The translations under genes were made by a program, and so were the position numbers. Below are positions 6,466-57,914 of a DNA stretch of 64,000 bases, piece by piece. Under the pieces are notes generated by a model that was not told the DNA's origin, did not search any database, and saw only the letters and a list, made by a program, of their open reading frames with translations. This DNA comes from Fidelibacterota bacterium (GTDB lineage Bacteria > Fidelibacterota > UBA2242 > JAFGTP01): NCBI GenBank assembly GCA_016934035.1, contig JAFGTP010000011.1, forward strand, positions 60,486 through 124,485. Direction: 5' to 3'. Numbering within the stretch: the stretch's first letter is position 1; each line of letters begins with the position of its first letter.

Positions 6466-7225
6466 AAAATCTTATTTGGAAGACACAGAGGTAAAAATTG
6501 CAGTAAATTCACCCGGATTTCAGTATGGTATGGGTTTTTTCACGTCGCTTAAATTTATCGATGGACAAGCCCAATTTTTAAATTACCATCTGGAGCGAAT
6601 ATATCATTCCTGTCGAGTTTTCAATATTCCCTTTAATCCCATTGATATAAACAAGATCATCGAAAACCTCATGAAAAAAAATAATTTGCTGGAATCCCGT
6701 ATAAAACTAATCATTTACGTCGATGAAGACTTAATGGGGCAATATCTGATTATACCTCAGAACCTGATAATAAATAAATATGAAAAGAATTTGGATTCAG
6801 TGGCAGTAGATCGGGGAGATTTAATCCTGAATCACCACAAATCGCTAAATTATTTTGATAATATTCGAATGAAAAATACAATCAGAGAAAATTTTGATGA
6901 CTTAATATTGTTCAGTAAAAAAGGACAGGTTCTGGAAGCAACGACTTCAAATATATTTTTCTTAGACAAGGATACGCTATATACACCTCCTTTAAATCTA
7001 CCGATATTAAACGGAATAATAAGAAGGGTAATTTTAGAATCGCAGGATATCCGGTGTGTGGAAAAGGAAATTTCCATGAATGAAATCATAGATTTTGCGG
7101 CTTGTTTTTTGACCAATTCAATAAAAGGAATTATACCTGTAAAATCAATTGTGTATAAGTCCAAAAGAATGATTTTTAATTGTGAAAATATTAATAAATT
7201 ACCGTCTAAATTATTAATGCTTTAG
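6443..7225 (+). CDS. pabC: Aminodeoxychorismate lyase / class IV aminotransferase
   Basis: Fold-type IV aminotransferase-like sequence of the right size (260 aa) placed after pabAB. It overlaps pabB by 23 nt. Confidence 0.6.
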   Translation: MEMIVFHKKSYLEDTEVKIAVNSPGFQYGMGFFTSLKFIDGQAQFLNYHLERIYHSCRVFNIPFNPIDINKIIENLMKKNNLLESRIKLIIYVDEDLMGQYLIIPQNLIINKYEKNLDSVAVDRGDLILNHHKSLNYFDNIRMKNTIRENFDDLILFSKKGQVLEATTSNIFFLDKDTLYTPPLNLPILNGIIRRVILESQDIRCVEKEISMNEIIDFAACFLTNSIKGIIPVKSIVYKSKRMIFNCENINKLPSKLLML

Positions 7226-8137
7226 GTGAAGATTATGAATTTTATCAATTATCATTTAGGTGAATTGGCTGCTTTGGCAACAGCGATTTGTTGGGCCGGG
7301 AATGCCATGTTTTTTGAAAATGCCGGGAAAAAAGTAGGTTCGTTTGCGGTAAATTATTTCAGATTGTTCATCGGGCTGTTTTTTTTGAGTATTTTTACCA
7401 CCCTTACCCGGGGTCATGTATTTCCGATTGATGCTGATGCACACACTTGGTTTTGGTTGTTTGTTTCAGGAATTGTCGGTGTTGTAATTGGCGATATGTT
7501 TCTCTTTGAAGCTTTTGTGGTGATTGGCGCAAGAATTTCAATGCTGATTATGTCCCTGGTTCCTCCTACTACAGCATTAATGGGCTGGCTGATACTCGGT
7601 GAAAAAATGAACTATTTGGAAATTTCAGGAATGACAGTAACCGTAATCGGAATTTCCATCGTCATCCTTGAACGGGACTCATCAAGTAAACAAATGAAGC
7701 TCAGTCATCCTGTGAAGGGGGTATTATTTGCGTTAGGTGGCATGTTGGGCCAGGCTGCAGGATTAATCCTCAGCAAGTATGGGGTTAGGGAATACAATGC
7801 CTTTGCTGCAACTCAAATCCGTTTGATTGCAGGTATTTTTGGCTTTACCATCATTTTTATTTTTAGAAACAACTGGAAAAAATTAGGCTGGGCATTGAAG
7901 GATTTTCATGCTATAACCCATATTGCAGCCGGTTCTTTTCTGGGGCCTTTTATCGGTATTTCATTATCGTTGATTGCAGTTCAGCGGGCCAAAGTTGGAA
8001 TTGCTTCCACATTAATTGCACTTTCACCGCTGATAATTACGGTTTTTTCAATAATTTTCAGACATGAAAAAATTTTTCTGAAAGAAGTTTTTGGAATTAT
8101 TATTGCGCTCTCAGGCGTCGTAATTTTCTTTTTGTAA
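7226..8137 (+). CDS. EamA/DMT family transporter (10 TM)
   Basis: Two repeated 5-TM EamA-like halves. It begins 1 nt after the pabC stop. Confidence 0.7.
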
Positions 8138-19339: not shown

Positions 19340-22300
19340 TTGAAGTGGTACGTTATGAAAAAGTGGGGAAATTTAATTTTTATTGGTGTTGCTATTCTGA
19401 ATTTCGCTTTCAGTAAAGAACAACCATTACATCTCATACCCCTGGATTTTAATCGGGCGATCCATTGTATTTATCAAGATTCAAACTATTATCTCTGGTT
19501 TGGTACAGATGATGGACTCTATCGGTATAACGGAAAAGATTATGTCGCCTACAAAATTGATCCTTATCAAAAGAATAGTATATCCGATGATAATATCACT
19601 GCCCTTTATGAAAATGGAAGTCGGGACCTGTTGATTGGGACAAAATTTGGCGGAATCAATAAATTTAATAGCAGTACGGAAAATTTTTTATCTTTTCAAA
19701 ATGACCTCATGTCCAGGGTTTCCATTCATGCAATATGTAATTTTCAGAATGAAATATTATTTGGGATTGATTCTGGATTATTCAGGCTGAAAAGTGAGAA
19801 TAGTGAATTGTCATACCAGGCTGTCCTTACCGGTTACACAATTACTGACATTTTATCTGTAGATGATCATTGTTTGATGGTTGCAACGGAAAATAACGGT
19901 TTTTTTCATTATGATAATTTTGAAAAGGAGGGTAGTGAAAAGGACCATTTTCTCAGTAATGTGGGAGTCAATTTTTTATTAAAGGTAAATAAAAATATTA
20001 TATTGATATCAACCAGGCAGGGGCTGTATTATTACAATTTGTCCGCAAAATCTCTTAAATCCATCGAGCACAAGGGAATAGTAAATTTATCCAGTGTTGA
20101 TAAAAATGCCATTACAATGGACCACCTCGGCAATATCTGGATAGGATTGGGGTATGAATTGCATCTGATTAGCACTTCTGACGACTTTAATTCCATTGAT
20201 ATTCAGTCCTTTGAACTGGATGTAGATAACCAGTTTTCAAAGGGAATTAATGCCTTGTATTTTGATCATAGCGGTGTCCTGTGGATCAACCTGAAAGGGA
20301 AAGGTTTATATAAATATTTCCCGTTACAAAAATTTTTGCATTTCAATATTGAAGAAGGATTGATGAGCAATATGATCTTTTCCGTCATTGAAAACAATTC
20401 CCATTCAATCCTGCTGGGCACCCATCATGGTTTATTTGTTTATGACCTGGAAGACCACCTTGTCGAAAGGATACCTGGAACGGAAGAACTGAATTTTCAG
20501 GTCATCACCGCTTTGTATAAAGATAGTTATCAAAACCTCTGGTGTGGCACGAATAATGGCCTCTACAAGTTTGGATCTTCCGGCGATCTTGTCCATTATA
20601 AACATTCCTCAAAGGAACTGAGCAGTATCAGTTCTGATTTTGTCTCCTCCATTGTTGGTGATCCGCTCAATGTTGGCGACCTTTGGATCGGTACTTCCGA
20701 CGGACTCAACCGCTATCGAAAAGAATATGACAATTTCATTCATTATTTTCATGACCAAAAGGATGAACATTCTATTGCCGGAAATAATATTTCCCATTTG
20801 TATTTTTCCCAAAAAAAGGACCTCTGGATCGGAACAGAGAATGAGGGACTGTCTAGATTAAATTGGGCAGAAATGAACAAATTTGACCCAAAATTTGTCA
20901 ATTATGGCGATGATATTACTCAAAAAGAAAGTATCAGCGATACCAAGATCACCTATATTTCCGAAAGCAATGACAGAATATGGATTGGAACTGAGAACGG
21001 CGGTTTGAATTCAATCGATACCCTAAACAACTTCAATCATTATCTTGAAACAAAGGGGCTTTTGGATAACCATATTTTGTCGATTTTATCCACTCAGGAT
21101 GATTTCCTCTGGATTGCAACACGGGACGGAATATCCAAATTCGATACTCGAAACCGTGTGTTTAAAAATTATTATTTCAAAGATGGTATAAAGAAGGGTG
21201 AATTTATTAATAAATCAGCCTGCATCACAAAAAATGGTAAAATTATTTTAGGTTCCAAAGCCGGCTTTACTTTTTTTCATCCGTCTCAGATTGTCAGCAA
21301 TATCAATCCGGCAGTTCCGCAGGTTGCCGGTGTTTATCTTTTTAACCAAAAAATAAAAAATGAAGATTTTAAAGGCCAGGGTGAAATTATCAAATTAAAA
21401 TATAACCAAAATGTTATCTCTTTTGAAATTTGTGCGCTTCACTATGTTTCTCCTCTTGAAAATATTATCGACTATTATCTCGAAGGTGTTGATGAGAGTT
21501 GGGGCAGATGTCGGAATTTTGAATACCTGACATATTCAAATTTAAAACCCGGTCAATATACTTTTCACATAAAAGTGGCTAATAATGACAATATCTGGAA
21601 TGAAAATGAAAAGAGCCTGAAAATTACGATAACTGCTCCGTTCTGGAGGACTTTTTGGTTTCAGTTTATTGTAATCTCTCTAATTGCAGGCCTGGCCTTT
21701 CTGTTCATCAAGCAACGTTTGAATGAGATTGAAAAGAAAAAATTTCATCTGGAAAAACAAATTGGGGATAAAATCAAAATCAATGAAGAACTTAATAAAG
21801 CCCTGGCAGAAGTAGAACAGTTGAAAATTAAACTTGAAAATGAAAACACTTATCTGAAAAAAGAAATTGAGGTCAGCGGCAATTCAAATTATAAAGAAAT
21901 CGTGACCAATAGTAAAAAGATGAATCATATTCTCGCCCAGGTGGATATCGCATCCGGTGCAGACCCGACTATTTTGATATTAGGCGAGTCAGGAACAGGA
22001 AAAGATCTCCTCGCTCATGCCATTCACAAAAGCAGTAATCGAAGCAAAGAGCCTTTTATCAAAGTTGATTGTGCCGCATTGCCCCCCAACCTTATTGAAT
22101 CAGAACTTTTCGGCCACGAAAAAGGTGCATTTACTTCAGCAAATATGCGTAAAATCGGGCGTTTTGAATTAGCCAACGGCGGGACAATTTTTCTGGATGA
22201 GATTGGAGAACTTCCGATCAAGGTGCAACAGAAATTATTGCGGGTCCTTCAAAGCGGAGAATTTGAACGACTCGGAAATTCTGTGACACTGAGAACCAAT

Positions 22301-22825
22301 ACACGCATCATTGCCGCAACAAACCGCAATCTTGAAGATGAAGTGAAAAAGGGACAATTTAGAGAGGACCTCTATTACAGGCTCAATGTCTTTCCGATCA
22401 ATATTCCGCCTTTGCGGGAAAGGATGGAAGATGTGCCCCTGCTCGTTCAGCATTTTATTGATAAATATGCTGGGAAATTCAATAAAACCATTACCAAAAT
22501 TCCGCAGAAAACCATCACTGCGCTGATGTCCTATTCCTGGCCCGGCAATATTCGTGAATTGGAAAATATCGTACAGCGGGCTATCATTATTAGCCGAGAC
22601 GACATACTGGAACTGGGTGATTGGTTTAAATCCAATCAACCCAATCGTGAAAACGATGATGAAAATATATTTATTTCTCTGGAAGAGATCCAAAAGCGCC
22701 ATATTGAAAGAATATTGGAATTTACCAATGGAAAAGTCAGCGGGGAAAACGGGGCTGCGGAAATTTTAAAAATTAACCCGAAAACTCTATTTAGCAGGAT
22801 GAAAAAATTAAATATAAATAACTAA
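19340..22825 (+). CDS. Membrane-anchored one-component sigma-54-dependent transcriptional activator with a periplasmic beta-propeller (two-component-regulator-propeller repeats)/Y_Y_Y sensor, then TM helix, coiled coil, AAA+ sigma-54 interaction domain and Fis-type HTH
   Basis: N-terminal signal/anchor. Repeated …LWFGTDDGL/…LLIGT/…IWIGT propeller repeats. Y_Y_Y-like segment (NLKPGQYTFHIKVANND). TM helix FWFQFIVISLIAGLAFLF. The AAA+ domain has Walker A ILILGESGTGKD, ELFGHEKGAFTSA (GAFTGA-type) and R-finger motifs. C-terminal HTH. No HisKA/HATPase or receiver segment is recognisable. Confidence 0.75.
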   Translation: MKWYVMKKWGNLIFIGVAILNFAFSKEQPLHLIPLDFNRAIHCIYQDSNYYLWFGTDDGLYRYNGKDYVAYKIDPYQKNSISDDNITALYENGSRDLLIGTKFGGINKFNSSTENFLSFQNDLMSRVSIHAICNFQNEILFGIDSGLFRLKSENSELSYQAVLTGYTITDILSVDDHCLMVATENNGFFHYDNFEKEGSEKDHFLSNVGVNFLLKVNKNIILISTRQGLYYYNLSAKSLKSIEHKGIVNLSSVDKNAITMDHLGNIWIGLGYELHLISTSDDFNSIDIQSFELDVDNQFSKGINALYFDHSGVLWINLKGKGLYKYFPLQKFLHFNIEEGLMSNMIFSVIENNSHSILLGTHHGLFVYDLEDHLVERIPGTEELNFQVITALYKDSYQNLWCGTNNGLYKFGSSGDLVHYKHSSKELSSISSDFVSSIVGDPLNVGDLWIGTSDGLNRYRKEYDNFIHYFHDQKDEHSIAGNNISHLYFSQKKDLWIGTENEGLSRLNWAEMNKFDPKFVNYGDDITQKESISDTKITYISESNDRIWIGTENGGLNSIDTLNNFNHYLETKGLLDNHILSILSTQDDFLWIATRDGISKFDTRNRVFKNYYFKDGIKKGEFINKSACITKNGKIILGSKAGFTFFHPSQIVSNINPAVPQVAGVYLFNQKIKNEDFKGQGEIIKLKYNQNVISFEICALHYVSPLENIIDYYLEGVDESWGRCRNFEYLTYSNLKPGQYTFHIKVANNDNIWNENEKSLKITITAPFWRTFWFQFIVISLIAGLAFLFIKQRLNEIEKKKFHLEKQIGDKIKINEELNKALAEVEQLKIKLENENTYLKKEIEVSGNSNYKEIVTNSKKMNHILAQVDIASGADPTILILGESGTGKDLLAHAIHKSSNRSKEPFIKVDCAALPPNLIESELFGHEKGAFTSANMRKIGRFELANGGTIFLDEIGELPIKVQQKLLRVLQSGEFERLGNSVTLRTNTRIIAATNRNLEDEVKKGQFREDLYYRLNVFPINIPPLRERMEDVPLLVQHFIDKYAGKFNKTITKIPQKTITALMSYSWPGNIRELENIVQRAIIISRDDILELGDWFKSNQPNRENDDENIFISLEEIQKRHIERILEFTNGKVSGENGAAEILKINPKTLFSRMKKLNINN

Positions 22826-22842
22826 CTATTTAAAAATCAGGA

Positions 22843-23622
22843 TTGGGTATGGTATCTGCAAAAAAAATTATCCGCATAATGGATAAATACAAGCTGGAGA
22901 AATTGTTGCTGTCACCACAGCATCACAATATTGAAAATGGGTCCTATGACTGGTTACTGGGCCTTTTCCCTGATATGGATCCACTGAAGATGAAATTAAA
23001 AATTGATTCCATATTTAAAAGTCAGAAAGTCAATTCAAATTTTGATATGAAAAACCAGGAGTTCATCAATGCTTGTTGTCTTGAAAATAACAGGCTTAAA
23101 TTAATCTATACAATTGATATTGGTAATGATGATATTATAAGAAAATTACAATCAGAATTTGGAAAATCGCCATTTTCTGCCTTGAAAATAAATAATTTGT
23201 TTTCTTCTCTGGACCGGAATAATCAAAATCTTTTCAGGGTAATTAATTTCTGTCGCATCAATGAAATGCCGCTACTGCTCTATGCCTATAAAAAAGCTGA
23301 CTGTGAAATTATCCGCAATCTTGCGGCTGAAAACCAATCCAACACCTTTATGATAGCCAGCATGAGCGGATTGGAATTTTTTGAACTTTATCGGGATTTG
23401 CCCGTGAACCTATTCTGTGAAATAAATAATTTAAACCTTGTTTCTGATTACAGGTTACTAAAAGCCCTGAATATATTTGGTCCCGGTCATTTGGTCTTTA
23501 GTTTTGAGGCCATCAATGAAGATAATCTCAGACACTCTATCATCAGAATCTGCAATCTGGCTGTTCCGGAAACTGTAAAAAGAAGAATTCTGGCGTTGAA
23601 TATTGAGACCTTGTTGAATTAA
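22843..23622 (+). CDS. Hypothetical cytoplasmic protein
   Basis: ORF of 259 aa starting 17 nt after the activator gene. No recognisable motifs. Confidence 0.35.
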   Translation: MGMVSAKKIIRIMDKYKLEKLLLSPQHHNIENGSYDWLLGLFPDMDPLKMKLKIDSIFKSQKVNSNFDMKNQEFINACCLENNRLKLIYTIDIGNDDIIRKLQSEFGKSPFSALKINNLFSSLDRNNQNLFRVINFCRINEMPLLLYAYKKADCEIIRNLAAENQSNTFMIASMSGLEFFELYRDLPVNLFCEINNLNLVSDYRLLKALNIFGPGHLVFSFEAINEDNLRHSIIRICNLAVPETVKRRILALNIETLLN

Positions 23623-23625
23623 TAT

Positions 23626-23645
23626 TTCTGAAATATCAGAAATAT
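23626..23645. promoter_or_regulatory. Perfect inverted repeat ATTTCTGA-AATA-TCAGAAAT (candidate transcription-factor operator or upstream activating sequence)
   Basis: Read directly. The same unit (TTCTGAAAT) recurs at 24326-24344 and many times in 29146-29299. Confidence 0.35.
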
Positions 23646-23777
23646 CTATAATATCCTAAAACAGTAACAATAATTTCCTGTAAATACTTTAAGAAATTAG
23701 TAATTTTTTTTAATTCCTTAAAAAAAATACGTCGGAAAATGAATTTCTCTTAGGGTTTTGAGGTCAAACAGAAATTT

Positions 23778-23865
23778 TTGGCATTTGAATTGTTAATAAC
23801 TCTATCACGTACCATACTAATCCACAGAAAAAGGAAGATGCACCCCGCACTTCCTTTTTCTTTTT
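23778..23865 (+). promoter_or_regulatory. Module A: sigma-54-like -24/-12 element (TTGGCAT-N5-TTGTT), conserved box GTACCATACTAATCC, and terminator-like hairpin plus T-tract. Candidate small RNA gene or attenuator
   Basis: TTGGCAT lies at 23778-23784 and TTGTT at 23790-23794. The box is at 23809-23823. Hairpin GAAAAAGGAAG/CTTCCTTTTT spans 23827-23859 and is followed by CTTTTT. A near-identical module lies at 28845-28932. Confidence 0.3.
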
Positions 23866-24150
23866 ACTGTGAATAAAAATCCAAAAACTAACCTAAATAA
23901 AAAATATTTTGAAAAAAACTGGATTAAATCGGACTACCCTGAGGGCTTTGAGTGTTGATTGTTCGGCTTTTTGGATTGTAAATGAACATTTTCGTTGTGA
24001 TTAGTTGCGGATAGCGAAAAGGCCCTAATACCAGGAATATTCAATAGAAATGCATCAGTAGATAAAATAATTTCAGACTACGTAACCGAATTTTCTTCAT
24101 TTTGTATTACCATAACTTTTAAGCCCTCGATTATCTTTATACTCAAATCC

Positions 24151-24187
24151 GGGCTTTAACCCGATAACGGTTTATGGGTTAAAGCCC
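24151..24187. other. Perfect 12-bp stem hairpin GGGCTTTAACCC-(13 nt)-GGGTTAAAGCCC in the long non-coding leader
   Basis: Read directly. There is no adjacent T-run, so it is not a classic terminator. The upstream TTTTAAGCCC at 24118-24127 could pair alternatively with the 5' arm. Confidence 0.4.
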
Positions 24188-24468
24188 ATTAAAAATGAAA
24201 TTCCATGTTACGAGTTATTCCTCGTGGCAATTCATACACACTTTTTCCAATATGTAATCCGGGATAATACATAGTTAAATAAAGCACCTTGTTCCAATCT
24301 TTTTTTGAAAAGGCAAACGATTAAATCCGAAATTTCAGAAAAAACCTAAATATCAGATAGTTCACTGCCTTATTTAATTGTTTTAATTTGATTGAATATA
24401 TTAGTAATTAACTGATTAATAGTAAATTATCATTTTATTTTGGGACCTTGTTTTAGAATATTGATCTT

Positions 24469-24523
24469 TTGGTACTCAAATTGGATGAGTAGAAATCGGA
24501 TGATAAGGGATTAATGTAAGGGG
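24469..24523 (+). promoter_or_regulatory. Proximal promoter/leader of SusC-like gene A: TTGGTAC-N5-TTGGA followed by conserved leader box GGATTAATGTAAGGGG
   Basis: The same architecture lies upstream of the second SusC-like gene (29382-29426). A strong RBS AAAGGAGGAAGGT sits before the ATG at 24584. Confidence 0.3.
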
Positions 24524-24583
24524 ACCCACCAATCACACCGTTTTACATTAATCACAAGTAAATAAAACATAAAGGAGGAAGGT

Positions 24584-27484
24584 ATGGCGAAATACTTGAT
24601 TTCGTTATTTCTTGTCCTGGTTCTATTCTGTCCATTAATTGCCCAGGATAGAATTTCAGGAACAGTGATCGATGATGTCACAGATGAACCGCTTGTGGCA
24701 GCAAATGTATTGATAAAGGGAACATCTGTGGGCACAGCCACGGATGAAGAAGGTCGGTTCTTTTTAAATTACAGCAACAATGAGGGGTTTACGTTGCAGG
24801 TATTCTATATGGGATACAAAATGAAAGAAGTTGTCTTTGAGCCGGGATCTGGTCTGGCTAACATTTTAGTTAGAATGCAGGAAGATGTGTTTAAAGGACA
24901 GGAAGTTGTGGTCACAGGCATTGCTTCTCAAATATCACGGGAGATAGCACCAGTCTCTGTAGGTTCGGTTGATGCAACAAAACTGACGGATTTAAACGCC
25001 TACTCGGATATTGCCCAATTGCTCAACGGGAAAATTTCCGGTACTAAAATCACATCTTCCAGTGGAAATGTGGGCGGGGGATATCGCTTTGATATTCGTT
25101 CCGGTGGCGGTCTCAACGGAGATGGTCAGCCCGTTATCTATGTAGACGGCATTCGTATTGACAATTCAGAGATTGAAACCCGTTACAGCAAAGGGGGACA
25201 GGAAATCAGCATGATGGCTTCTCTTAATCCTTCAGAAATTGCAAATATTGAAATTCTGAAAGGTCCGGCTGCTGCAGCGACCTATGGAACGGACGGTTCT
25301 AATGGAGTTGTCCTCATTACAACCAAAAAGGGACAACTGGTCCAGGGCGGAAAAGGATATTCTATCAACTATAATTATAAATTTGGTACCAATTCCCAAT
25401 CCTATCAATACACCAAAGATGATGTTGTTTCCTACAAGGCCGCCAATTCTGTTTTCAAAGATGGTGATTTTGTGGGTCATGACCTCAGTATTTCCGGTGG
25501 TAATAAAGCAACAAAATACTTTTTTACCATGGGTATCCAGGATGAAGAAGGGATTATGGTTAACAATTTTCATAATCGTAAAAATATGCGTCTGAATGTT
25601 GACGCTGTGGCCAGTGAACAATTAAACCTGTCCGCAACCATTGCCATGAACCAGTCAGAACTGGCCCGTCCGGAAAATGATGATAATATTTATGGATGGG
25701 GTGGAAATACACTTTTAAGGCCCACACCCTGGGGTTGGCTGGACAGCATTGAAATTGCGGCGGCTGAAGAAAATATTGACATTAAAAAAATGTCCGGTAG
25801 TTTCAAGGCAACTTACAGGCCCTTCAAAAATTTTTCAATCAATGGATCCATTGGAGCGGAACATTCAAATATGAACCATTATTCCTATTACCCGCCATGG
25901 GGAGATTATCTCTATACCAATGGTTCTAAACAACTGACAGACCGATTCAATACACAGTTTACCTACACTTGGTATGCCGGATATAAATACAATATTCTGG
26001 AAGGCTTTACCGGAAACACCAAAGTTGGCGGCCAGTTATTCGATCAGGAACTGAGAAGAAATTATTTGGCCATTGATTCATTGTCATCAGATAAACTGAA
26101 AGATATTGGTTCTGCAAACGGTGAAGATTTTCTGGACGATTATGGTGAAAACTATGCGACCTTTCGAACTGCAGGGTTATTTTTGGATAATGCATTTAAT
26201 TTTCAGGATAAATTGTTTATAGGGGCCAGTATCCGGCAGGATTTTGCCAGTTCTTTATCGCCCAAAGCACCGAATATCATTTACCCCCAGGCTAATGTTG
26301 CAATCAGACTGGACCGGTTTGGATTGACACCCGGCCTGATTGATATGGCAAAAATCAGATTAGCCTACGGTGAAACAGGGCAGTTGCCGGGATCAACCCA
26401 GTCAACTCCATTGATATGGGCAGCTGAACAGTCGGGATATGGTGGTGGGCTAACGGTATCGGAAATTGGAAACAACAAACTGGAACCGGAAAGAATCAAG
26501 GAATTGGAAATCGGACTGGATTTGGGGCTTTTCAACCGCTACAAAATCGAAGCTTCTTATGCCAAAATGAACGCTGAAAATTCAATCGTGGGTAGAAATC
26601 TGGCGCCTTCAACCGGACTGGTGGTCACAGCTTTTCCTGATAATATCGGAAAAATTGAAGGACACTCCTTTGAGCTTGGCCTGGATGCAGTACTGGTCAA
26701 TGAAAAAAATGTTCGTCTTGAGATCAACCAGAGAAATTCATGGCAGAAAGATGAGATTACGATAATGCCGGAACCATCCTATACCAATGACATCCAGGTT
26801 CTGATGGAAGGTAAATCCAGATGGACGTTCTTTGATGAGAAAGTAGATTCCATCATGTATGATGAAAATGGAAAGTTTCTGGACTACCGTATATCCACAG
26901 ATAAGAAAGACCTGGGAGATGCCATACCCGATTATTTTGGTTCTTTGTCGATGAACCTTACCTTGTTCCGACATGTGAATATCTATGGATTATTGGATTG
27001 GCAGACTGGTGTCAAAGTCTATAATTTTACCAAGGTCTATCAAACTTTTTTTGGCAACAATGTGGCCTATAATGAAGCCACTGCCCTGGTGGATTCTCTT
27101 AATGCCATTGATGGGTATGATTATCATTCCGGAAAATACAAAAAAGCGGTTAAAGATTATGTGAAATACGATGCGGTTTTTTATGGTTCAAGGGCCGCTT
27201 TTATTGAAAATGGCGATTACCTGAAAATCAGAGAATTGAGCATCAGTTATGACGCCTCCCATTTACTGAAAAAATATCTGCCCAATGCAGGGATTGAAAG
27301 ACTGGCTTTTTCTTTTACAGCAAATAATCTCATTACATGGACGAAATATTCCGGTGCTGATCCCGAGGTCAATTCCACCGGCTCAACTGTAGATGGCGGT
27401 GAGACCTATGTTACCAGAAATGAAGATTTTTTGACAATGCAGCATCCTAAGAGGATTGCATTTTCAATACAATTGGGTTTATAG
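24584..27484 (+). CDS. SusC/RagA-like TonB-dependent outer-membrane receptor
   Basis: Signal peptide. Carboxypeptidase-regulatory-like N-domain (ISGTVIDDVTDEPLVAANVLIKGTSVGTATDEEGRF). Plug region and a long beta-barrel ending in an aromatic-rich C-terminus. A SusD-like gene follows. Confidence 0.85.
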   Translation: MAKYLISLFLVLVLFCPLIAQDRISGTVIDDVTDEPLVAANVLIKGTSVGTATDEEGRFFLNYSNNEGFTLQVFYMGYKMKEVVFEPGSGLANILVRMQEDVFKGQEVVVTGIASQISREIAPVSVGSVDATKLTDLNAYSDIAQLLNGKISGTKITSSSGNVGGGYRFDIRSGGGLNGDGQPVIYVDGIRIDNSEIETRYSKGGQEISMMASLNPSEIANIEILKGPAAAATYGTDGSNGVVLITTKKGQLVQGGKGYSINYNYKFGTNSQSYQYTKDDVVSYKAANSVFKDGDFVGHDLSISGGNKATKYFFTMGIQDEEGIMVNNFHNRKNMRLNVDAVASEQLNLSATIAMNQSELARPENDDNIYGWGGNTLLRPTPWGWLDSIEIAAAEENIDIKKMSGSFKATYRPFKNFSINGSIGAEHSNMNHYSYYPPWGDYLYTNGSKQLTDRFNTQFTYTWYAGYKYNILEGFTGNTKVGGQLFDQELRRNYLAIDSLSSDKLKDIGSANGEDFLDDYGENYATFRTAGLFLDNAFNFQDKLFIGASIRQDFASSLSPKAPNIIYPQANVAIRLDRFGLTPGLIDMAKIRLAYGETGQLPGSTQSTPLIWAAEQSGYGGGLTVSEIGNNKLEPERIKELEIGLDLGLFNRYKIEASYAKMNAENSIVGRNLAPSTGLVVTAFPDNIGKIEGHSFELGLDAVLVNEKNVRLEINQRNSWQKDEITIMPEPSYTNDIQVLMEGKSRWTFFDEKVDSIMYDENGKFLDYRISTDKKDLGDAIPDYFGSLSMNLTLFRHVNIYGLLDWQTGVKVYNFTKVYQTFFGNNVAYNEATALVDSLNAIDGYDYHSGKYKKAVKDYVKYDAVFYGSRAAFIENGDYLKIRELSISYDASHLLKKYLPNAGIERLAFSFTANNLITWTKYSGADPEVNSTGSTVDGGETYVTRNEDFLTMQHPKRIAFSIQLGL

Positions 27485-27493
27485 GAGGTTTAT

Positions 27494-28741
27494 ATGAAAA
27501 ATATTAAAATAATTTTATTGCCGGTTTTACTCTTCTCAATAGTCATGGTGTCCTGTGAAGATTGGGTCCAGGATTTACCTCCCCGCGAGGATATTATTGA
27601 AGATGATGTTCTGGTAGATGAAGCCGATATCGATTTACTGGTTCTGGGTATCAAGACCAATTTTTCTTCAACTATTGAGCGGTCCTCGCTCTATTCGGAA
27701 ATATTGGGAGATGCTGTAATTAATGGTCGCTATGTTTGTCAGGATGCCACTTATGATGTCTGGCGCGAACTTGAAGAAGGTGATATTCAATTAAACAATG
27801 CGGCGGTTGACGGGCTTTCCACAAATATTGGAGAAATGTGGCACTGTGCCACCAATCTCGTCGATCGTATCACCAATCGAATGGGAGAAATCAGTGAAGA
27901 AAAGAAAAATTATGGGCTTTTCAACGGCCATCTGTTTGAAGGCATTGCTTATGAGATTTATGCCAATTATTATGGTCTGAATGAAGAAGAAGGCGGTGGA
28001 TGTATCAACTCCGGGCCTTTTACCAATTCAGGGCAGCTCTTTGATATGGCCCTGAATAAATATGAAGAGGCCCTCAATTTTACCAGTGATCCCTGGGAAA
28101 TCCGGGTGGTGAATTCACTGATGGCCAGGTGTTATTTATATAAAGGTGATTATTCCGGTTCCAGGATATGTGGAGCACTGGGTTTGACAGAAGGTGACCA
28201 GCCCTTTGAGGCGCTTTATGTTCAGTCCTCGGATAATTATTGGTGGCAGCAAGCCAGCATTGGACTTCGTGTCCAGGTCATTGTGGATAACAGGTTTGCT
28301 CAGTATATCGATGAGGATCCCAACGAAGCCAACCGCATTCCGCTTTATGAATTGCCTGACGAATTAAATGTGTCAGAAGATACTGCGGCGGTTTATTGGA
28401 CCCAGGGTAAGTATATTGAGGCAGATGCGCCTATCGCTTTTATCACCTGGCAGGAGACCTATCTGATCCTGGCTGAACTGGCTGCAATAAGAGGACAATC
28501 GGGCAATGCCCTTGATGCTGTCAATGCAGTTCGTGGCAGTCATGGAATTGATCCGGTGTCCGAAGTCAATCGTGATTTGATCATCACAGAGCGGGATAAA
28601 GAATTATTTACCACAGGTGCAAGGCTGATCGATCAGCGTCGTTTTGATCTATGGCATTTGCCCTCCGGTACATGGAAGTATCTCCCAATCACGGAAAGTG
28701 AACGAAATGCCAATGATAATTTGCCCAATGTCGGTGAATAA
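27494..28741 (+). CDS. SusD/RagB-like lipoprotein
   Basis: Lipobox VMVSC. Sits immediately after the SusC-like gene. C-terminus …RRFDLWHLPSGTWKYLPITESERNANDNLPNVGE matches the SusD-family C-terminal LPIP-x-SE-x-NPNL-type tail. Confidence 0.7.
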   Translation: MKNIKIILLPVLLFSIVMVSCEDWVQDLPPREDIIEDDVLVDEADIDLLVLGIKTNFSSTIERSSLYSEILGDAVINGRYVCQDATYDVWRELEEGDIQLNNAAVDGLSTNIGEMWHCATNLVDRITNRMGEISEEKKNYGLFNGHLFEGIAYEIYANYYGLNEEEGGGCINSGPFTNSGQLFDMALNKYEEALNFTSDPWEIRVVNSLMARCYLYKGDYSGSRICGALGLTEGDQPFEALYVQSSDNYWWQQASIGLRVQVIVDNRFAQYIDEDPNEANRIPLYELPDELNVSEDTAAVYWTQGKYIEADAPIAFITWQETYLILAELAAIRGQSGNALDAVNAVRGSHGIDPVSEVNRDLIITERDKELFTTGARLIDQRRFDLWHLPSGTWKYLPITESERNANDNLPNVGE

Positions 28742-28758
28742 CTAATGAAATTAACCAT

Positions 28759-28800
28759 AAAGTCCTCTTTGAATTGCAAAGGGGACTTTTACTTTTCTTA
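28759..28800 (+). terminator. Rho-independent terminator after the SusD-like gene
   Basis: AAAGTCCTCTTTG-aatt-CAAAGGGGACTTT (one mismatch) followed by TTACTTTTCTT. Confidence 0.5.
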
Positions 28801-28844
28801 ACGATATCACAATGCAGAACAGAAAAAACATCCGAATCATACTA

Positions 28845-28932
28845 TTGGCATTCATATTGTTATGCTAAAAGATGTACCATACTAATCCTAGGAAAAGGAA
28901 AGTCTCTCTCAAATAAACTTTCCTTTTTCTTT
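28845..28932 (+). promoter_or_regulatory. Module B: second copy of the sigma-54-like element (TTGGCAT-N5-TTGTT), GTACCATACTAATCC box, and hairpin plus T-tract
   Basis: TTGGCAT lies at 28845-28851 and TTGTT at 28857-28861. The box is at 28874-28888. Hairpin AAAAGGAAAGT/ACTTTCCTTTT is followed by the same CTTTTTCTTTTT tail as module A. The stems differ by compensatory changes. Confidence 0.3.
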
Positions 28933-29145
28933 TTCCAGATAAAATTCCCGATATCAAATCAGTGCTATCCCCCGACAGAGTAAAAATGGCGACAGGAAAG
29001 GCTTTTTTTCAAACTGTTAAATCTGTCTTCAGAGTCTTATAAAAAAATGGTGTATGGAATGATGTTCGAATTTTTATTTAAAAATCTGATATTTACATTA
29101 ATTATTTAATGTATTTGTTGAATTTTTTTTAATAAAAATAGTTTA

Positions 29146-29299
29146 ATATCAGAAAAGTATGATTTAGTTGAGGGTTTGATCGGTTTTTTTGAAGTATTTA
29201 AGAAATTCTGAAAAAAAATTCGGAAATTTCGGAAATTTCGGAAAGTTCTGAAATATCCTATATTTAATCCTTTTTGCATTATTCTGAAATATCAGAAAA
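29146..29299. promoter_or_regulatory. Array of 9-bp TTC(T/G)GAAA(T/G) units: five direct repeats (29206-29254), an inverted repeat ATTCTGAAAT-ATCAGAAAA (29281-29299) and isolated half-sites (29146-29157). Candidate activator binding region
   Basis: Read directly: TTCTGAAAA, TTCGGAAAT x2, TTCGGAAAG, TTCTGAAAT, and a palindrome built from the same unit. It lies about 85 to 240 bp upstream of the proximal sigma-54-like element at 29382. Confidence 0.4.
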
Positions 29300-29381
29300 C
29301 TAATTTTTAACATAAGTATTATCAATATTTTATCCAAATAAATATCGGTGTGATTGAAAAAAAATAATTCAAAATGGGCTC

Positions 29382-29426
29382 TTGGTACATCTGTTGAGAA
29401 ATACCTATCAGGATTAGTGTAAGGGG
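29382..29426 (+). promoter_or_regulatory. Proximal promoter/leader of SusC-like gene B: TTGGTAC-N5-TTGAG followed by GGATTAGTGTAAGGGG box
   Basis: Same architecture as 24469-24523. RBS AAAAGGAGGAAAGT sits before the ATG at 29493. Confidence 0.3.
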
Positions 29427-29492
29427 GTGTCAAAAAACACATCTAAAACACAATCATACAAAGTGCTAACGAGGTTAAAAAAGGAGGAAAGT

Positions 29493-32400
29493 ATGACAAG
29501 AAATGTCATTTTATGGTTATTGACCATCCTGTTACCATTTGTTCTATTCGCTGGAACAACTGGTAAAATTTCAGGAATAGTAACCGACAAGGAAACCGGT
29601 GAACCCTTACCCGGTGTTAATATAGTGGTTACCGGTGGCGGTCTGAATACCGGAGCGGCAACTAACATCACCGGTTATTATTCCATTATTAATGTTCCTG
29701 TAGGTGATTATGAAATGAAAGTATCCTACATGGGAAAAAAGACCATTGTAATTAAAAACCTACATGTATCCCTGGATTTGACGACAGAAATCAATCTTGA
29801 GATGGAAAACAGTACATTGGATATGGAAGAAGTTCTGGTTACTGCCGAACGCAAAATTATCAGAAAAGATGAAACCAATACCAATGTTATCAAAACTGCT
29901 GAAGATATTGAAAATCTTCCCGTAAGAGGTATGCAGGAAATTGCAGCCGCCACAGCAGGTGTTGTGAAAACAGCGAATTCCAACAACATGAATGTTCGTG
30001 GCGGACGTGCAGCAGAAACTGCAGTGTATATAGACGGCGTACTGGTTAATGATCCCTATAACAGTGCCGTCAGACTGTATTTGCCAAACGAAGCAATTGA
30101 AGAAATGAGTGTCCAGACCGGTGGTTTCAATGCCGAATACGGTGATGCCATGTCGGGTATTGTTGCTTTGACCACCAATGTTGGGACAAAAGAATACAAG
30201 GCCTCTATATCTTTTGATACGGACCAGTTTCTGAGTGCTGAGGAAAAATTTCTGGGGACCTATTCCTATGGCCATAATGAGTATGTTGCCACCTTGAGTG
30301 GTCCTATTATTCCTGGAAAAAATCATACATTCTTTTTCAGTGGAACCCGTCAATACCAGGCTGACTGGACGCCTTCTTATGGCTGGTCAGAAAATCCCTA
30401 TCGTCTGGAGGAAATGGATTATCATCAGACTTTTATGTATGACAATGAATTTGACAGCATTCGTATTGCTTATAATGATGAAATGGAAAAAATGGATACA
30501 ACCCTGATAACCTATACCGAAAGAGATACACTTGATCTCGGTAACCATCAATACAAGTTTAATGCAAGAATACCTGGCAATTTCAACAGTGTCTGGTCAT
30601 GGAACGGAAAATTTAAATTACAATTGACCGAAGGGATTTCACTGAAAACCGGTTTTGCCAGAACTGACAGGGAATTTGCTGCAGATCCTTATTATGATGA
30701 TGCGATGCACCGGCAATATTTCTTCAATCAGGACCATGGTCCTGTTCAGTCCAATCAGACAACATCTCTCAATACCACGCTGACTCATACTGTTTCCAAT
30801 AATACTTTTTATGATTTAAGATTCAAATATTTTGATACAGAGCGGAAATGGTACGATAAGGAATTTGGTGATGATCTGGAAAAATATGGTAGTGTTGAAG
30901 ACCAGCCCTTTCCGGATCAAAATATATTCTACGTCGGTAGTGAAGAACTCCGGTCGCTTTATGAAGAGCGGTATGACCGTGGAACTTCAACATTTAAAGG
31001 TACTAGGTTCAACGGTTCTCTGGAACCGGACTTTTTTGCGCCCGGTGTTCCTTATGACGATTATTTTAAAAACAGAACAACCTATTGGGGAATCGATTTT
31101 GATCTGACCCACCAATTGGGAAAACATCATACCTTTAAAACCGGGTTTGAATATAAATATCACACCATGCGTGAATTTCGTATGGTAAGTCCCTACAATT
31201 ACGTCGGAGATTATGATACTGATATTGAAAGATATCAGGGTGCGGACCTGCGATTCTACGGTTATGATGTTGAGGGTAAAGAAGTGGATGACGGGCCAAA
31301 TTTTCTGGATGATGTCGAAAGAGATGAATCCGGACAGCCCACATCTGGTTATGACAAACAGGAACCCTATCATCCGATTATTATGAGTGGTTATTTGCAG
31401 GATAAAATAGAGTATGAAAATATTATCATCAATATGGGACTGAGATATGACCGGATTGATCCCAATGCCTGGATGTTCAAACAAATTGATAAACAGGTTG
31501 ATGCAGATGGCAATTACATCAATGGCACCGGTATGTTTGGTGGCAATGAACAATTTGATGCTGTAGATACAAAACCCTCAGAAGTATATGACTATCTCAG
31601 TCCTCGTCTGGGCGTGTCTTTTCCGATTACCGAAAGTACTGTTTTCCATACACAATATGGTATTTTCTATCAGGCACCTCAGCTCATGGACCTTTATCTG
31701 AGTCCTTTTTATCTGGATACCTATGTATCAGGTGGTGGTTATTTTACTGTGATTGACAATCCAAATTTACGGCCACCCAAAACCACTTCCTATGAATTGG
31801 GTTTCAAACAAATGCTTGGCAATCGCGCTTCGCTGCAGCTGACGACCTTTTTCAAGGAAACTGAAGACCTGGTACTGATATTCCCACATTTGACCGATGC
31901 TACGGAAATCGCTTTTACCGATAATGGTGATTTTGGCACCATCAAAGGTTTTGATGTGATTTTTACTATGAGAAGATTCAATAATCTTTCACTGAATATG
32001 AATTATGAGTTCCAGGTAGCCAGAGGGACCGGATCCAGTACCAATTCCAATTTTGATATCGCCTGGCAGGATGGTTCCCGGGACGGAAACTTTCCAAAGT
32101 TTGCAATGCCCCTGGATTTTGAGCAGCGACATCGCGGCAGTATCATAATGGATTACCGATACGGGCAGGATGATGCACCAATCGGTTTTCTGAATAATGC
32201 CGGTATCAATATGATGTTTACTTTTAATTCAGGTAATCCCTATACTTTGGCGGTTGTTGCCAACACCAATCCTTTTGGCGGCCGGAATGACAATGATGGT
32301 ATTTCAGAAAAACCCTTTTCAGCAGTCGGTGCGGAGCGGACTCCCTGGATGTATCAGACAGACCTGAAAGTAGATAAAAGAATGACTTTCGGAAAAATAA

Positions 32401-32633
32401 AACTGACGGCCTACTGTACAATATTGAATGTTTTTAATAAAGAAAATGTTAAAAATGTTTACATCACCACTGGATCGCCCAATGATACGGGTTACCTGGG
32501 TACCAATCCCGGTAAAGTATACTGGAATAGTTTAACTGAAGATCAGCAAAAACAATTCAAGATGAGAGAATGGGATTATAGCCATTATGCAGCACCAAGA
32601 CAGATTCGTCTTGGATTGCGGCTGGAACTATAA
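29493..32633 (+). CDS. SusC-like TonB-dependent outer-membrane receptor (no SusD partner)
   Basis: Signal peptide. Carboxypeptidase-regulatory-like N-domain (ISGIVTDKETGEPLPGVNIVV…GYYSI). Plug and a long barrel. Start taken at the ATG at 29493, which has a strong RBS; the ORF-track start at 29427 lacks one. Confidence 0.85.
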   Translation: MTRNVILWLLTILLPFVLFAGTTGKISGIVTDKETGEPLPGVNIVVTGGGLNTGAATNITGYYSIINVPVGDYEMKVSYMGKKTIVIKNLHVSLDLTTEINLEMENSTLDMEEVLVTAERKIIRKDETNTNVIKTAEDIENLPVRGMQEIAAATAGVVKTANSNNMNVRGGRAAETAVYIDGVLVNDPYNSAVRLYLPNEAIEEMSVQTGGFNAEYGDAMSGIVALTTNVGTKEYKASISFDTDQFLSAEEKFLGTYSYGHNEYVATLSGPIIPGKNHTFFFSGTRQYQADWTPSYGWSENPYRLEEMDYHQTFMYDNEFDSIRIAYNDEMEKMDTTLITYTERDTLDLGNHQYKFNARIPGNFNSVWSWNGKFKLQLTEGISLKTGFARTDREFAADPYYDDAMHRQYFFNQDHGPVQSNQTTSLNTTLTHTVSNNTFYDLRFKYFDTERKWYDKEFGDDLEKYGSVEDQPFPDQNIFYVGSEELRSLYEERYDRGTSTFKGTRFNGSLEPDFFAPGVPYDDYFKNRTTYWGIDFDLTHQLGKHHTFKTGFEYKYHTMREFRMVSPYNYVGDYDTDIERYQGADLRFYGYDVEGKEVDDGPNFLDDVERDESGQPTSGYDKQEPYHPIIMSGYLQDKIEYENIIINMGLRYDRIDPNAWMFKQIDKQVDADGNYINGTGMFGGNEQFDAVDTKPSEVYDYLSPRLGVSFPITESTVFHTQYGIFYQAPQLMDLYLSPFYLDTYVSGGGYFTVIDNPNLRPPKTTSYELGFKQMLGNRASLQLTTFFKETEDLVLIFPHLTDATEIAFTDNGDFGTIKGFDVIFTMRRFNNLSLNMNYEFQVARGTGSSTNSNFDIAWQDGSRDGNFPKFAMPLDFEQRHRGSIIMDYRYGQDDAPIGFLNNAGINMMFTFNSGNPYTLAVVANTNPFGGRNDNDGISEKPFSAVGAERTPWMYQTDLKVDKRMTFGKIKLTAYCTILNVFNKENVKNVYITTGSPNDTGYLGTNPGKVYWNSLTEDQQKQFKMREWDYSHYAAPRQIRLGLRLEL

Positions 32634-43728: not shown

Positions 43729-43930
43729 GATTTCCCTCCTTTGAATAATCCCTCTAAACGAGATTAATATATTTGAAGGAATCTGAAATAAAAAGTAATT
43801 TTTCATGCCTCATAAACAAAAACAGCTGCAAAAAAGCTGTTTATAATTTGTTTAAACAAAACAAACTCCAAACTAACATTACATTGCTTAATATTTTGGC
43901 ATGAGGATTTATTAACTAATTGGAGGTTTT

Positions 43931-54419: not shown

Positions 54420-54426
<7 letters not shown>
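50200..54426 (+). CDS. Sensor histidine kinase with periplasmic beta-propeller/Y_Y_Y sensor, TM helix, coiled coil, GAF and PAS domains, HisKA and HATPase; no receiver domain
   Basis: Propeller repeats (…IWVLGNQN, …IWMSN, …IYAGSKNKGLYVYD). Y_Y_Y (LDPGEYTLKTRYAD). TM FYLLLGLVSVFLVLALI. H-box LAHEIKNPLSSI. The C-terminus has N/G1/G2 boxes (DNGVGMD, GFGLGLPI). Confidence 0.8.

Positions 54427-57914
<3,488 letters not shown>

Follow-up and report, generated by a model that had tools for sequence, protein, structure and literature searches.

Two receptor leaders and their conservation

The stretch analysed here (the window) is 64 kb of contig JAFGTP010000011.1, and the subject of this text is a pair of leaders that precede two TonB-dependent receptor (TBDR) genes. 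The first gene, TBDR-A (24584-27484), encodes a receptor with CarbopepD_reg_2 and Plug domains and is followed by a SusD-like gene (27494-28741; SusD_RagB, E=4e-7). The second, TBDR-B (29493-32633), is followed by genes for a 1077-aa protein of unknown function and a PorV/FadL-like outer-membrane protein, and a Pfam search of the operon B proteins found no SusD-like gene. An earlier note on this DNA had called both genes SusC-like; both do encode TBDRs, but the SusC/SusD-like pair is restricted to operon A. The same note had taken a Bacteroidetes promoter for comparison; the host is not a member of the Bacteroidetes but an uncultured marine bacterium of the Marinimicrobia/Fidelibacterota: the product of the gene at 19340-22825 is a 100% match to a protein from a Candidatus Marinimicrobia metagenome-assembled genome, annotated as 'sigma 54-interacting transcriptional regulator'. 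The features of the two leaders are listed below, with the transcription start (+1) taken from the promoter as the 13th nucleotide after TTG, +/-2 nt.

24325-24357, + strand: candidate activator sites of leader A, ATCCGAAATTTCAGAA (a 2-mismatch palindrome) and then a second copy, CCTAAATATCAGA (match scan; alignment with locus L166)
24469-24484, + strand: putative sigma-54-type promoter of operon A, TTGGTAC-TCAAA-TTGG (motif match; TTGGTAT-TGTAA-TTGG in L166)
24496-24583, + strand: predicted 88-nt 5' untranslated region (UTR) of TBDR-A (from the inferred +1)
24508-24523, + strand: box A, GGATTAATGTAAGGGG, of which 24509-24521 would be the 5' arm of a stem-loop
24541-24553, + strand: predicted 3' arm of stem-loop A, UUUUACAUUAAUC, pairing with 24509-24521 (minimum-free-energy and centroid folds agree; kept in L166)
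24571-24586, + strand: Shine-Dalgarno sequence (SD) AAAGGAGGAA and ATG of TBDR-A (SD unpaired in the predicted fold)
29219-29297, + strand: candidate activator sites of leader B (match scan; both blocks and their spacing kept in L089 and L082)
29382-29397, + strand: putative sigma-54-type promoter of operon B, TTGGTAC-ATCTG-TTGA (motif match; kept in L089, L082, L173 and L174)
29409-29492, + strand: predicted 84-nt 5' UTR of TBDR-B (from the inferred +1; the box starts at +3)
29411-29426, + strand: box B, GGATTAGTGTAAGGGG, of which 29412-29415 and 29417-29420 would be the 5' arm of a stem-loop
29448-29455, + strand: predicted 3' arm of stem-loop B, ACACAAUC (A16 of the 5' arm bulged)
29480-29495, + strand: SD AAAGGAGGAA and ATG of TBDR-B (sequence)

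The three proximal elements described earlier were all recovered before both TBDR genes. TTGGTAC-N5-TTG matches exactly on the + strand (24469/24470 and 29382/29383), the 16-nt box GGATTARTGTAAGGGG is exact at 24508-24523 and 29411-29426, and the strong ribosome-binding site has the form AAAGGAGGAA-N2-ATG, with AAAGGAGGAA at 24571-24580 and 29480-29489 and ATG at 24584 and 29493. Up to 3 mismatches, the window holds no box besides these two copies. The gap between TTG(G/A) and the box had been given as 15-25 nt, which fits copy A (22 nt) but not copy B (13 nt).

Related loci, given here by L numbers, were obtained via protein homologues of both receptors and of the regulator encoded at 19340-22825 (hereafter the activator). 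The full arrangement, which comprises upstream palindromes, TTGGTAY-N5-TTGR, the box, and a strong SD, is present in seven distinct leaders, five of them beyond the window, in related metagenomic lineages. A-type leaders were found in the window and in L166 (TBDR-A 79% identical), and B-type leaders in the window, L089, L082, L173 (TBDR-B 82% identical), and L174/L175. The activator proteins of the represented lineages are 100, 69, 57 and 54% identical. In pairwise and three-way alignments, conservation was limited to the palindromes, the -24/-12 block, ~30 nt at the start of the predicted transcript, the 3' arm, and the SD, and the DNA in between is near random. Between the two A-type leaders, the conserved stretch sets in no more than 2 nt from the predicted +1 (at +2 of the TBDR-A UTR), and CGGATGATAAGGGATTAATGTAAGGG is identical in both. 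A scan of 2.39 Mb of sequence for the box at <=1 mismatch returned 5 occurrences, each 13-24 nt after TTGGTAY-N5-TTGR, and two further box-bearing leaders were obtained after that scan. Absence of the box from homologous loci, which the earlier note had named as a ground for refutation, is therefore not what is seen within the clade; the box is, however, specific to that clade.

Putative promoters, palindromes and the adjacent candidate activator

The element TTGGYAY-N5-TTG occurs 4 times in the 64 kb (23778, 24469, 28845 and 29382) versus 1.1 expected. All four sites are on the + strand and lie only within the long intergenic regions 23623-24583 and 28742-29492, upstream of the TBDRs. The hexamer is TTGGTAC or TTGGTAT in 7/7 leaders and TTGGCAT in 9/9 promoters of a small RNA (sRNA) gene family described in the next section. 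The GG-N10-G spacing, that is, N5 between hexamer and TTG, is invariant across the 7 leaders (from five or more lineages), the 9 sRNA promoters, and other promoters of the lineage. Position -13 is always G, and each of the ~20 promoters seen has A, T or G at -12; this set comprises the leaders, the sRNA promoters, and the promoters of a chemoreceptor gene in L083 (6526), of L169 (7179 and 7589), of L109/L126, and of the Ignavibacteria locus L172 (6113, - strand). The operon A promoter, for example, retains the -24 GG and the -13 G and has G rather than C at -12. A C at -12, as part of GC, is near-invariant and near-universal in canonical sigma-54 promoters. The pattern suggests a shift in sigma-54 -12 recognition that is lineage-wide and possibly extends to the whole Fibrobacteres-Chlorobi-Bacteroidetes (FCB) group.

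Because -12 is never C, the leader promoters are best read as a variant that would function in the manner of sigma-54 promoters and is kept apart from the canonical class. Sigma-54 dependence is the best reading because the anatomy is accompanied by an adjacent activator gene, upstream palindromes, and a promoter swap in orthologues. These points and the kept spacing strongly support the earlier proposal of a -24/-12 promoter with GG or GA at -12, but the canonical -12 GC is absent. The analysis also agrees with the earlier note in that the box is no sigma-A promoter of the Bacteroidetes kind. A sigma-70-type promoter was rejected, as neither leader has a sigma-70-like site on the + strand. 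No credible open reading frame (ORF) overlaps the leaders on either strand; hidden ORFs in the intergenic regions were rejected because only short, low-complexity frames are found there.

The 16-bp palindrome TTCTGA-N4-TCAGAA has 16 matches in the window at <=3 mismatches versus 3.4 expected. Two copies are exact (23626 and 29282), and copies with 2 mismatches are found at 24325, 29219 and 29228 and, inside a gene, at 3749; apart from the last, matches at <=2 mismatches are confined to TBDR-upstream regions. Palindrome centres lie 93-157 bp upstream of the promoter -24 GG. The candidate sites of leader A are centred ~138 bp upstream of it, and their block is kept in the orthologous L166, in which the flanks have diverged. 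Leader B carries overlapping TTCGGAAATTTCGGAA / TTCTGAAATATCC copies arrayed at 29219-29261 and the exact palindrome TTCTGAAATATCAGAA at 29282-29297, centred 94 bp upstream of the -24 GG; a spacing of 93-94 bp is kept in the window, L089 and L082. Palindrome blocks and spacing are thus conserved between flanks that are near random, and the protein that binds them is probably the neighbouring activator. The array at 29219-29261 consists of 9-bp-phased tandem overlapping half-palindromes, TTCGGAAAT three times and then TTCTGAAATATCC, and it creates a spurious 92-aa minus-strand ORF (29164-29442).

The gene adjacent to this region has the following position and nature.

19340-22825, + strand: putative cognate activator, a one-component transmembrane protein (Pfam domains, transmembrane segment, loop sequence)

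It lies ~1.6 kb upstream of the leader. In order, its product contains Reg_prop beta-propellers and a Y_Y_Y domain (Pfam), which is a periplasmic sensor architecture, followed by a single transmembrane segment at residues ~770-795. There is no receiver domain. The AAA+ domain (Sigma54_activat PF00158, E=1e-69) is succeeded by AAA_lid_14 and HTH_8, and the sigma-54-contacting L1 loop reads GAFTSA, not GAFTGA, with F and T retained. An activator gene also adjoins in L082, L079, L084 and L169. A second sigma-54 system, at 50200-55829, includes a Reg_prop/Y_Y_Y histidine kinase and an NtrC-type regulator (54420-55829) with a canonical GAFTGA; the lineage therefore clearly uses sigma-54. Scanning a collection of genome contigs with the activator protein revealed only distant matches to sensors of hybrid two-component systems (HTCS; <=31% identity) and no close relative. 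Homologues in Ignavibacteria (36-38% identity) have no TBDR genes next to them; the architecture therefore does not extend to that group. A literature search on sigma-54 in Marinimicrobia, or on HTCS-sigma-54 regulators with SusC, returned nothing relevant.

Orthologues of TBDR-B that are ~60% identical occur in other Marinimicrobia without the activator, where they sit behind clpP and have TTGACA-N17-TACATT instead. Since these orthologues carry a sigma-70-like promoter, the comparison of predicted promoters shows a rewiring of receptor regulation between sigma-70 and sigma-54 within the phylum. The clpP-linked loci (L086-L088, L090, L092-L094, L104, L105 and L135) place a conserved AAAAGCTTGACA-N17-T(T/A)ACATT promoter ~150 nt before the start of the TBDR-B orthologue and share a conserved GCAGTGAGG motif. 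For TBDR-A, the relatives in L167 and L169 have sigma-54-type promoters and palindromes without the box, and those in L168 and L170 have neither promoter nor box. L169, a more GC-rich relative (7060-7280 and 7460-7610), encodes a Reg_prop/Y_Y_Y sigma-54 activator and an NtrC-type regulator. It also contains a different sRNA-like unit, with TGGCAC-N5-TTGA, a hairpin formed by AATTGGGAGT...ACTCCCAATT, and a U-rich tail. Further along this locus, a thioredoxin gene and a TBDR-A-like operon are preceded by three palindromes and TGGTAC-N5-TTGA, with no GGATTA box.

A predicted 5'-UTR stem-loop and a predicted small RNA family

The predicted folds make the box an RNA-level element at or near the predicted 5' end of the transcript, supplying one arm, the 5' one, of a conserved 5'-UTR stem-loop. 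In all seven leaders, GAUUARUGK pairs with a segment 20-35 nt downstream, which reads ACAUUAAUC, UCAUUAAUC, GCAUUAAUC, ACACAAUC or ACACAAAUC, and the SD remains free. The hairpin proposed earlier for copy A is real, but its 3' arm TTACATTAATC lies at 24543-24553, one base away from the position first given; copy B, said to lack the hairpin, forms an equivalent stem (GAUU(A)GUGU with ACACAAUC, one bulged A). Predicted UTR lengths range from 81 to 94 nt. With the inferred +1, the box starts at +3 in most B-type leaders, +7 in L174, and +13 in the A-type, and the stem is preceded by 3 unpaired nucleotides in 4/5 B-type leaders, 7 in L174, and 13 in the A-type. In an alignment of the seven sequences, 87% of stem cells pair, versus 21-47% when the 3' partners are slid. 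Two pairs vary: box position 7 (pair 60-97) is A-U, G-C or G.U, and box position 10 (pair 63-94) is U-A, G.U or U.G. The observed covariation score was reached by 13/500 shuffles.

Conservation is stronger in the 5' arm than in the 3' arm, and the stem offers no explanation for the AAGGGG part of the box; something besides the stem must also read the box sequence. A-type leaders have a 10-nt insertion, CGGATGATAA, between promoter and box (24497-24509 in the window, 2002-2014 in L166), which is identical in both and looks like a partial tandem duplication of the box (GGATGATAAGG / GATTAATGTAAGG). Sequestration of the ribosome-binding site, a thermosensor, and an attenuator were all rejected: the SD is unpaired in every predicted fold, and a U-run after the stem is absent. 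Rfam has no family for the leader.

The distal -24/-12 elements of the two intergenic regions had been taken for a second promoter of the same receptor genes. They are instead promoters of a separate, predicted small-RNA gene (TTGGCAT-N5-TTG[A/T]), whose predicted RNA starts ~13 nt downstream.

23778-23865, + strand: sRNA gene copy A, with promoter TTGGCAT-TTGAA-TTGT at 23778-23793 and a predicted 60-nt RNA at 23806-23865
28845-28934, + strand: sRNA gene copy B, with promoter TTGGCAT-TCATA-TTGT at 28845-28860 and a predicted 64-nt RNA at 28871-28934

The predicted RNA of copy A opens with a single-stranded 5' seed, GUACCAUACUAAUCC, and continues into a terminator hairpin and U-tail; an exact activator palindrome lies upstream at 23626-23641. 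Nine distinct copies were found in six lineages, always just after the activator gene or ahead of a receptor leader; beyond the window they lie in L079 (14431-14518), L082 (13512-13602 and 14363-14448), L084 (6665-6750), L089 (612-702), and L167 (4410-4489 and 9162-9244). All share a length of ~55-65 nt, an unpaired 5' region of 18-20 nt, a 13-17-bp hairpin, and a U-tail. The upper stem of the hairpin differs in every lineage, and the seed GUACCAUACUAAUCC is invariant in 7/9 copies, with ACACCAUACCAAUCC in L167. Rfam 15 gave no gathering-score match in the window and, at E<=5 in 23500-29600, only chance-level eukaryotic matches. A covariance model of the sRNA run over 1.03 Mb of related loci detected no further copies; its other matches were terminator antisense or weak antisense at initiation regions. 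The sRNA family is thus undescribed and has its own sigma-54-type promoter, seed, and terminator.

The sRNA seed ACUAAUCC is complementary, through its 3' half, to the B-type box, which makes pairing a suggestive possibility. Box B GGAUUAGUGU pairs with AUACUAAUCC over 10 bp (9 Watson-Crick and 1 G.U), and up to 13 bp are possible in L089. The predicted seed-box duplex of -14.2 kcal/mol ranks about fifth among 128,000 window positions, and the box is the best non-self site in L089. Cofolding predicts that B-type boxes are invaded by the seed, and that the seed's partner in the A-type is instead the start-codon region GGUAUGG. The best predicted seed targets are translation initiation regions, not the box. 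First in the window is GGATTGGGTATGGTAT (22840-22856; -17.6 kcal/mol), the initiation region of ORF 22843-23622 (259 aa, no Pfam match), which directly follows the activator gene. This target covers an SD-like AGGA and an in-frame ATG at 22849, and its conserved counterpart in L079 (13490-13504), the lineage at 69% identity, reads GGATTTGGTATGGTC. Pairing there could create a feedback loop on the activator operon. The variant L167 seed (CCAAUCC) offers no partner for a comparison of seed-box co-variation, as the L167 leaders have no box. In L170, a TBDR-A-like initiation region (7985-8003), GGAGGATTAGTATGGTG, holds a perfect 13-nt seed complement, and this locus has no sRNA gene and no sigma-54 promoter; an extracytoplasmic function (ECF) sigma gene lies downstream.

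Proposed regulation and competing explanations

The evidence supports a real and conserved regulatory leader with a -24/-12 element of non-canonical -12, and with a box that is possibly an sRNA site. Our main reading, to which we give a probability of about 0.6, is that each proximal leader is the start of a sigma-54-dependent transcription unit in which the box forms the 5' arm of a stem-loop. RNA polymerase with sigma-54 would bind TTGGTAY-N5-TTGR, in which the -24 GG and -13 G are kept and -12 is not C, and would stay as a closed complex until remodelled by the neighbouring transmembrane activator, with its HTCS-like periplasmic sensor, AAA+ domain, and HTH_8. An oligomer of this activator would occupy the TTCTGA-N4-TCAGAA palindromes 93-157 bp upstream and presumably act once the periplasmic domain senses a substrate-derived ligand. 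Transcription would then start ~13 nt after TTG to yield an 81-94-nt 5' UTR, in which GGATTARTG would supply the 5' arm of a stem-loop that lies at the mRNA 5' terminus or not far from it. Since the SD AAAGGAGGAA is single-stranded, the hairpin is not expected to gate ribosome binding. It may have two roles: to shield the 5' end of the B-type mRNA, where only ~3 nt are unpaired, and to serve in B-type leaders as a docking site for the co-induced sRNA, whose seed duplex is predicted to be stronger than the cis arm. The outcome would be a feed-forward loop from the activator to mRNA and sRNA. What the sequences show directly is the anatomy, its conservation, the adjacency of the activator gene, and a conserved predicted fold; sigma-54 dependence, the start site, the identity of the palindrome-binding activator, and the role of the hairpin are inferred from these.

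Several observations weigh against this reading. At the promoter level, C never occurs at -12, and rpoN itself was not seen in the 64-kb window. L167 has the sRNA, palindromes, and promoter and yet no box. Fold z-scores are modest (-0.3 to -2.4), and the covariation is based on seven related sequences with two variable pairs. Protection of the 5' end would not apply to the A-type, given its ~13 unpaired nucleotides. The conserved AAGGGG is explained by neither seed pairing nor stem. For the docking role, pairing compared with shuffled seeds reaches p ~0.02-0.08 only, and the A-type box has an A.C mismatch in the seed duplex (-8.8 kcal/mol), so that pairing fails there.

The best-surviving alternative gives these RNA elements another order of importance. 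The box may be mainly a trans target: the seed GUACCAUACUAAUCC would pair with GGAUUAGUGU at the 5' end of B-type mRNAs and alter their stability, and the cis hairpin would be a secondary, competing mimic of the seed. The invariance of the seed in 7/9 copies and of GGAUUAGUG in 5/5 B-type leaders, while the cis 3' arm varies, favours such a target, as do contiguous pairing over 10-13 bp (UCAGGAUUAGU plus 2 in L089), the high rank of the box among predicted sites, and a cofold gain of -8 to -11 kcal/mol. Furthermore, sRNA and leader have the same promoter type and mostly the same palindromes, and the FopS sRNAs of Bacteroides thetaiotaomicron, which pair with susC mRNA 5' ends, provide a precedent (PMC11697453). 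Against it, the A-type mismatch falls exactly within the seed duplex and it is the cis arm that compensates; the best-scoring seed targets are initiation regions (ORF 22843 and the TBDR in L170); and the L167 sRNAs have no box partner. We consider this explanation possible, although the main reading is preferred. Docking of the sRNA on the box is likewise held as a plausible proposal rather than a result, with odds well short of even, because of the modest p-values, the A-type mismatch, and the better targets at initiation regions.

A wider proposal, which we regard as somewhat less likely still, is that this uncultured phylum of the FCB group runs its receptor operons by a self-contained RNA circuit. 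Here the membrane-spanning, HTCS-like sigma-54 activator would induce both the TBDR operons and a multicopy 5'-seed sRNA encoded between them, with feed-forward and feedback regulation. The sRNA would pair with the 5'-terminal box of TBDR-B, displacing the cis seed-mimic arm, and would also pair with the start-codon region of TBDR-A and the initiation region of ORF 22843.

It is improbable that the box is instead a DNA operator just after the start site, bound by a second regulator that acts as repressor or roadblock. GGATTAGT / ACTAATCC does occur shortly after the predicted +1 in both promoter classes, inverted as ACTAATCC at ~+8 to +15 of the sRNA genes; the insertion that separates promoter from box in the A-type measures exactly 10 nt, or one helical turn; and an operator could account for a 5' arm conserved more strongly than the 3' arm. 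The motif is asymmetric, however, and is oriented one way in one promoter class and the other way in the other, the changes seen in the 3' arm are compensatory and indicate a constraint at the RNA level, the loci contain no conserved candidate repressor gene, and the insert looks like a partial tandem box copy and not a phasing spacer. We find it more doubtful still that the box is a pseudo or mini translation start (SD-like AGGA/GGGA, 3-nt spacer, ATG/GTG, TAA) that captures ribosomes or mimics the TBDR initiation region GGAGGATTAGTATGG. Five of seven boxes read [A/G]TG-TAA, the sole variable core position switches between two start codons, UAAGGGGG is a nearly perfect SD, and the box resembles TBDR initiation regions such as that of L170. 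However, the stop is lost in L082 and L173, where GTG-GAA... and GTG-GCA... run into unrelated longer frames, and a start-stop upstream ORF was rejected on this account; in addition, a 3-nt SD-start spacing is too short, the B-type site lies at +3 and is base-paired, and the A/G switch is equally explained by stem covariation. Least probable by far is that the likeness reflects shared ancestry of two duplicated upstream regions with a chance TTGG...TTG devoid of promoter function: the two TBDR genes are paralogous, and the AT-rich window makes the loose motif common (23 one-mismatch matches versus 12 expected), but across lineages with activators 54-69% identical only palindromes, -24/-12, box, 3' arm, and SD are kept, an activator gene adjoins, and orthologues outside the clade have a different promoter.

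Known systems and further observations

The proposed unit shares features with several characterized systems. Like canonical sigma-54 promoters with NtrC-family activators (glnAp2/NtrC, pspA/PspF), it has TGG at -24, TTG ending at -13, a fixed 10-nt gap, palindromic activator sites ~90-160 bp upstream, and a Sigma54_activat AAA+ and HTH_8 protein encoded next door. Unlike them, it has A, T or G at -12 and GAFTSA in the L1 loop, and its activator lacks a receiver domain and joins a periplasmic Reg_prop/Y_Y_Y sensor to the output in one membrane-spanning protein. The Vibrio Qrr sRNAs are reportedly LuxO- and sigma-54-dependent. They resemble the family described here in being paralogous sRNAs with sigma-54 promoters, an NtrC-family activator, one copy beside the activator gene, and a conserved seed, and also in possible feedback on the activator operon, as the seed here complements the initiation region of the ORF after the activator gene. 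Sequence, phylum, activator type, and predicted targets, which here are outer-membrane receptors, are all unrelated. The 5' UTR of E. coli ompA carries a 5'-terminal stabilising stem-loop. B-type leaders alone may be similar, with a stem-loop predicted to lie within about 3 nt of the 5' end of an outer-membrane protein mRNA in most of them and a free ribosome-binding site, whereas A-type leaders have ~13 unpaired 5' nucleotides, and it is the sequence of the 5' arm, not structure alone, that is conserved here.

The HTCS of Bacteroides polysaccharide utilization loci (PULs) also combine a Reg_prop/Y_Y_Y periplasmic sensor with neighbouring SusC/SusD-like and TBDR genes, and substrate induction is presumed. 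The output module here is Sigma54_activat, AAA_lid_14, and HTH_8, not HisKA/HATPase/REC/AraC; the promoters are of the -24/-12 type, not sigma-A -33/-7; the SD is strong; and the phylum is Marinimicrobia/Fidelibacterota. FopS and GibS, multicopy sRNAs of B. thetaiotaomicron, have predicted pairing with the 5' ends or translation initiation regions of susC-like mRNAs (PMC11697453). The present sRNAs are alike in size (~60-70 nt), copy number, target class, and the order of a single-stranded conserved 5' seed and a terminator hairpin. Among the differences, they show no match by sequence or in Rfam, their promoter is of the sigma-54 type and not a sigma-ABfr one, their genes are situated within the regulated locus beside the activator, and one of their candidate sites is at the very 5' terminus of the mRNA, ~70 nt before the SD.

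The Marinimicrobia/Fidelibacterota are an abundant phylum with hardly any cultured members. For the uptake of high-molecular-weight substrates in this phylum, the locus offers a concrete and testable regulatory model drawn from sequence alone, which combines an HTCS sensor joined to a sigma-54 output, a defined candidate activator palindrome, a promoter class that departs from -12 GC, a 5'-UTR stem-loop, and an sRNA with an anti-initiation-region seed. These parts are small and portable, which makes E. coli, equipped with a sigma-54 of its own, a suitable host for testing the model. If the RNA circuit is true, it would represent the first sRNA layer of PUL-like regulation outside Bacteroidota and a natural sigma-54 promoter class without -12 C.

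A third TBDR gene of the window (43931-46729), which is followed by a phytase gene, has TTGGCATGAGGATTTA 21 nt before its SD, with the -13 G missing. Upstream of it, a perfect inverted repeat, AAACAGCT-N7-AGCTGTTT, is located at 43822-43844. This third receptor may have a link with the Reg_prop/Y_Y_Y histidine kinase and the NtrC-type regulator encoded at 50200-55829.

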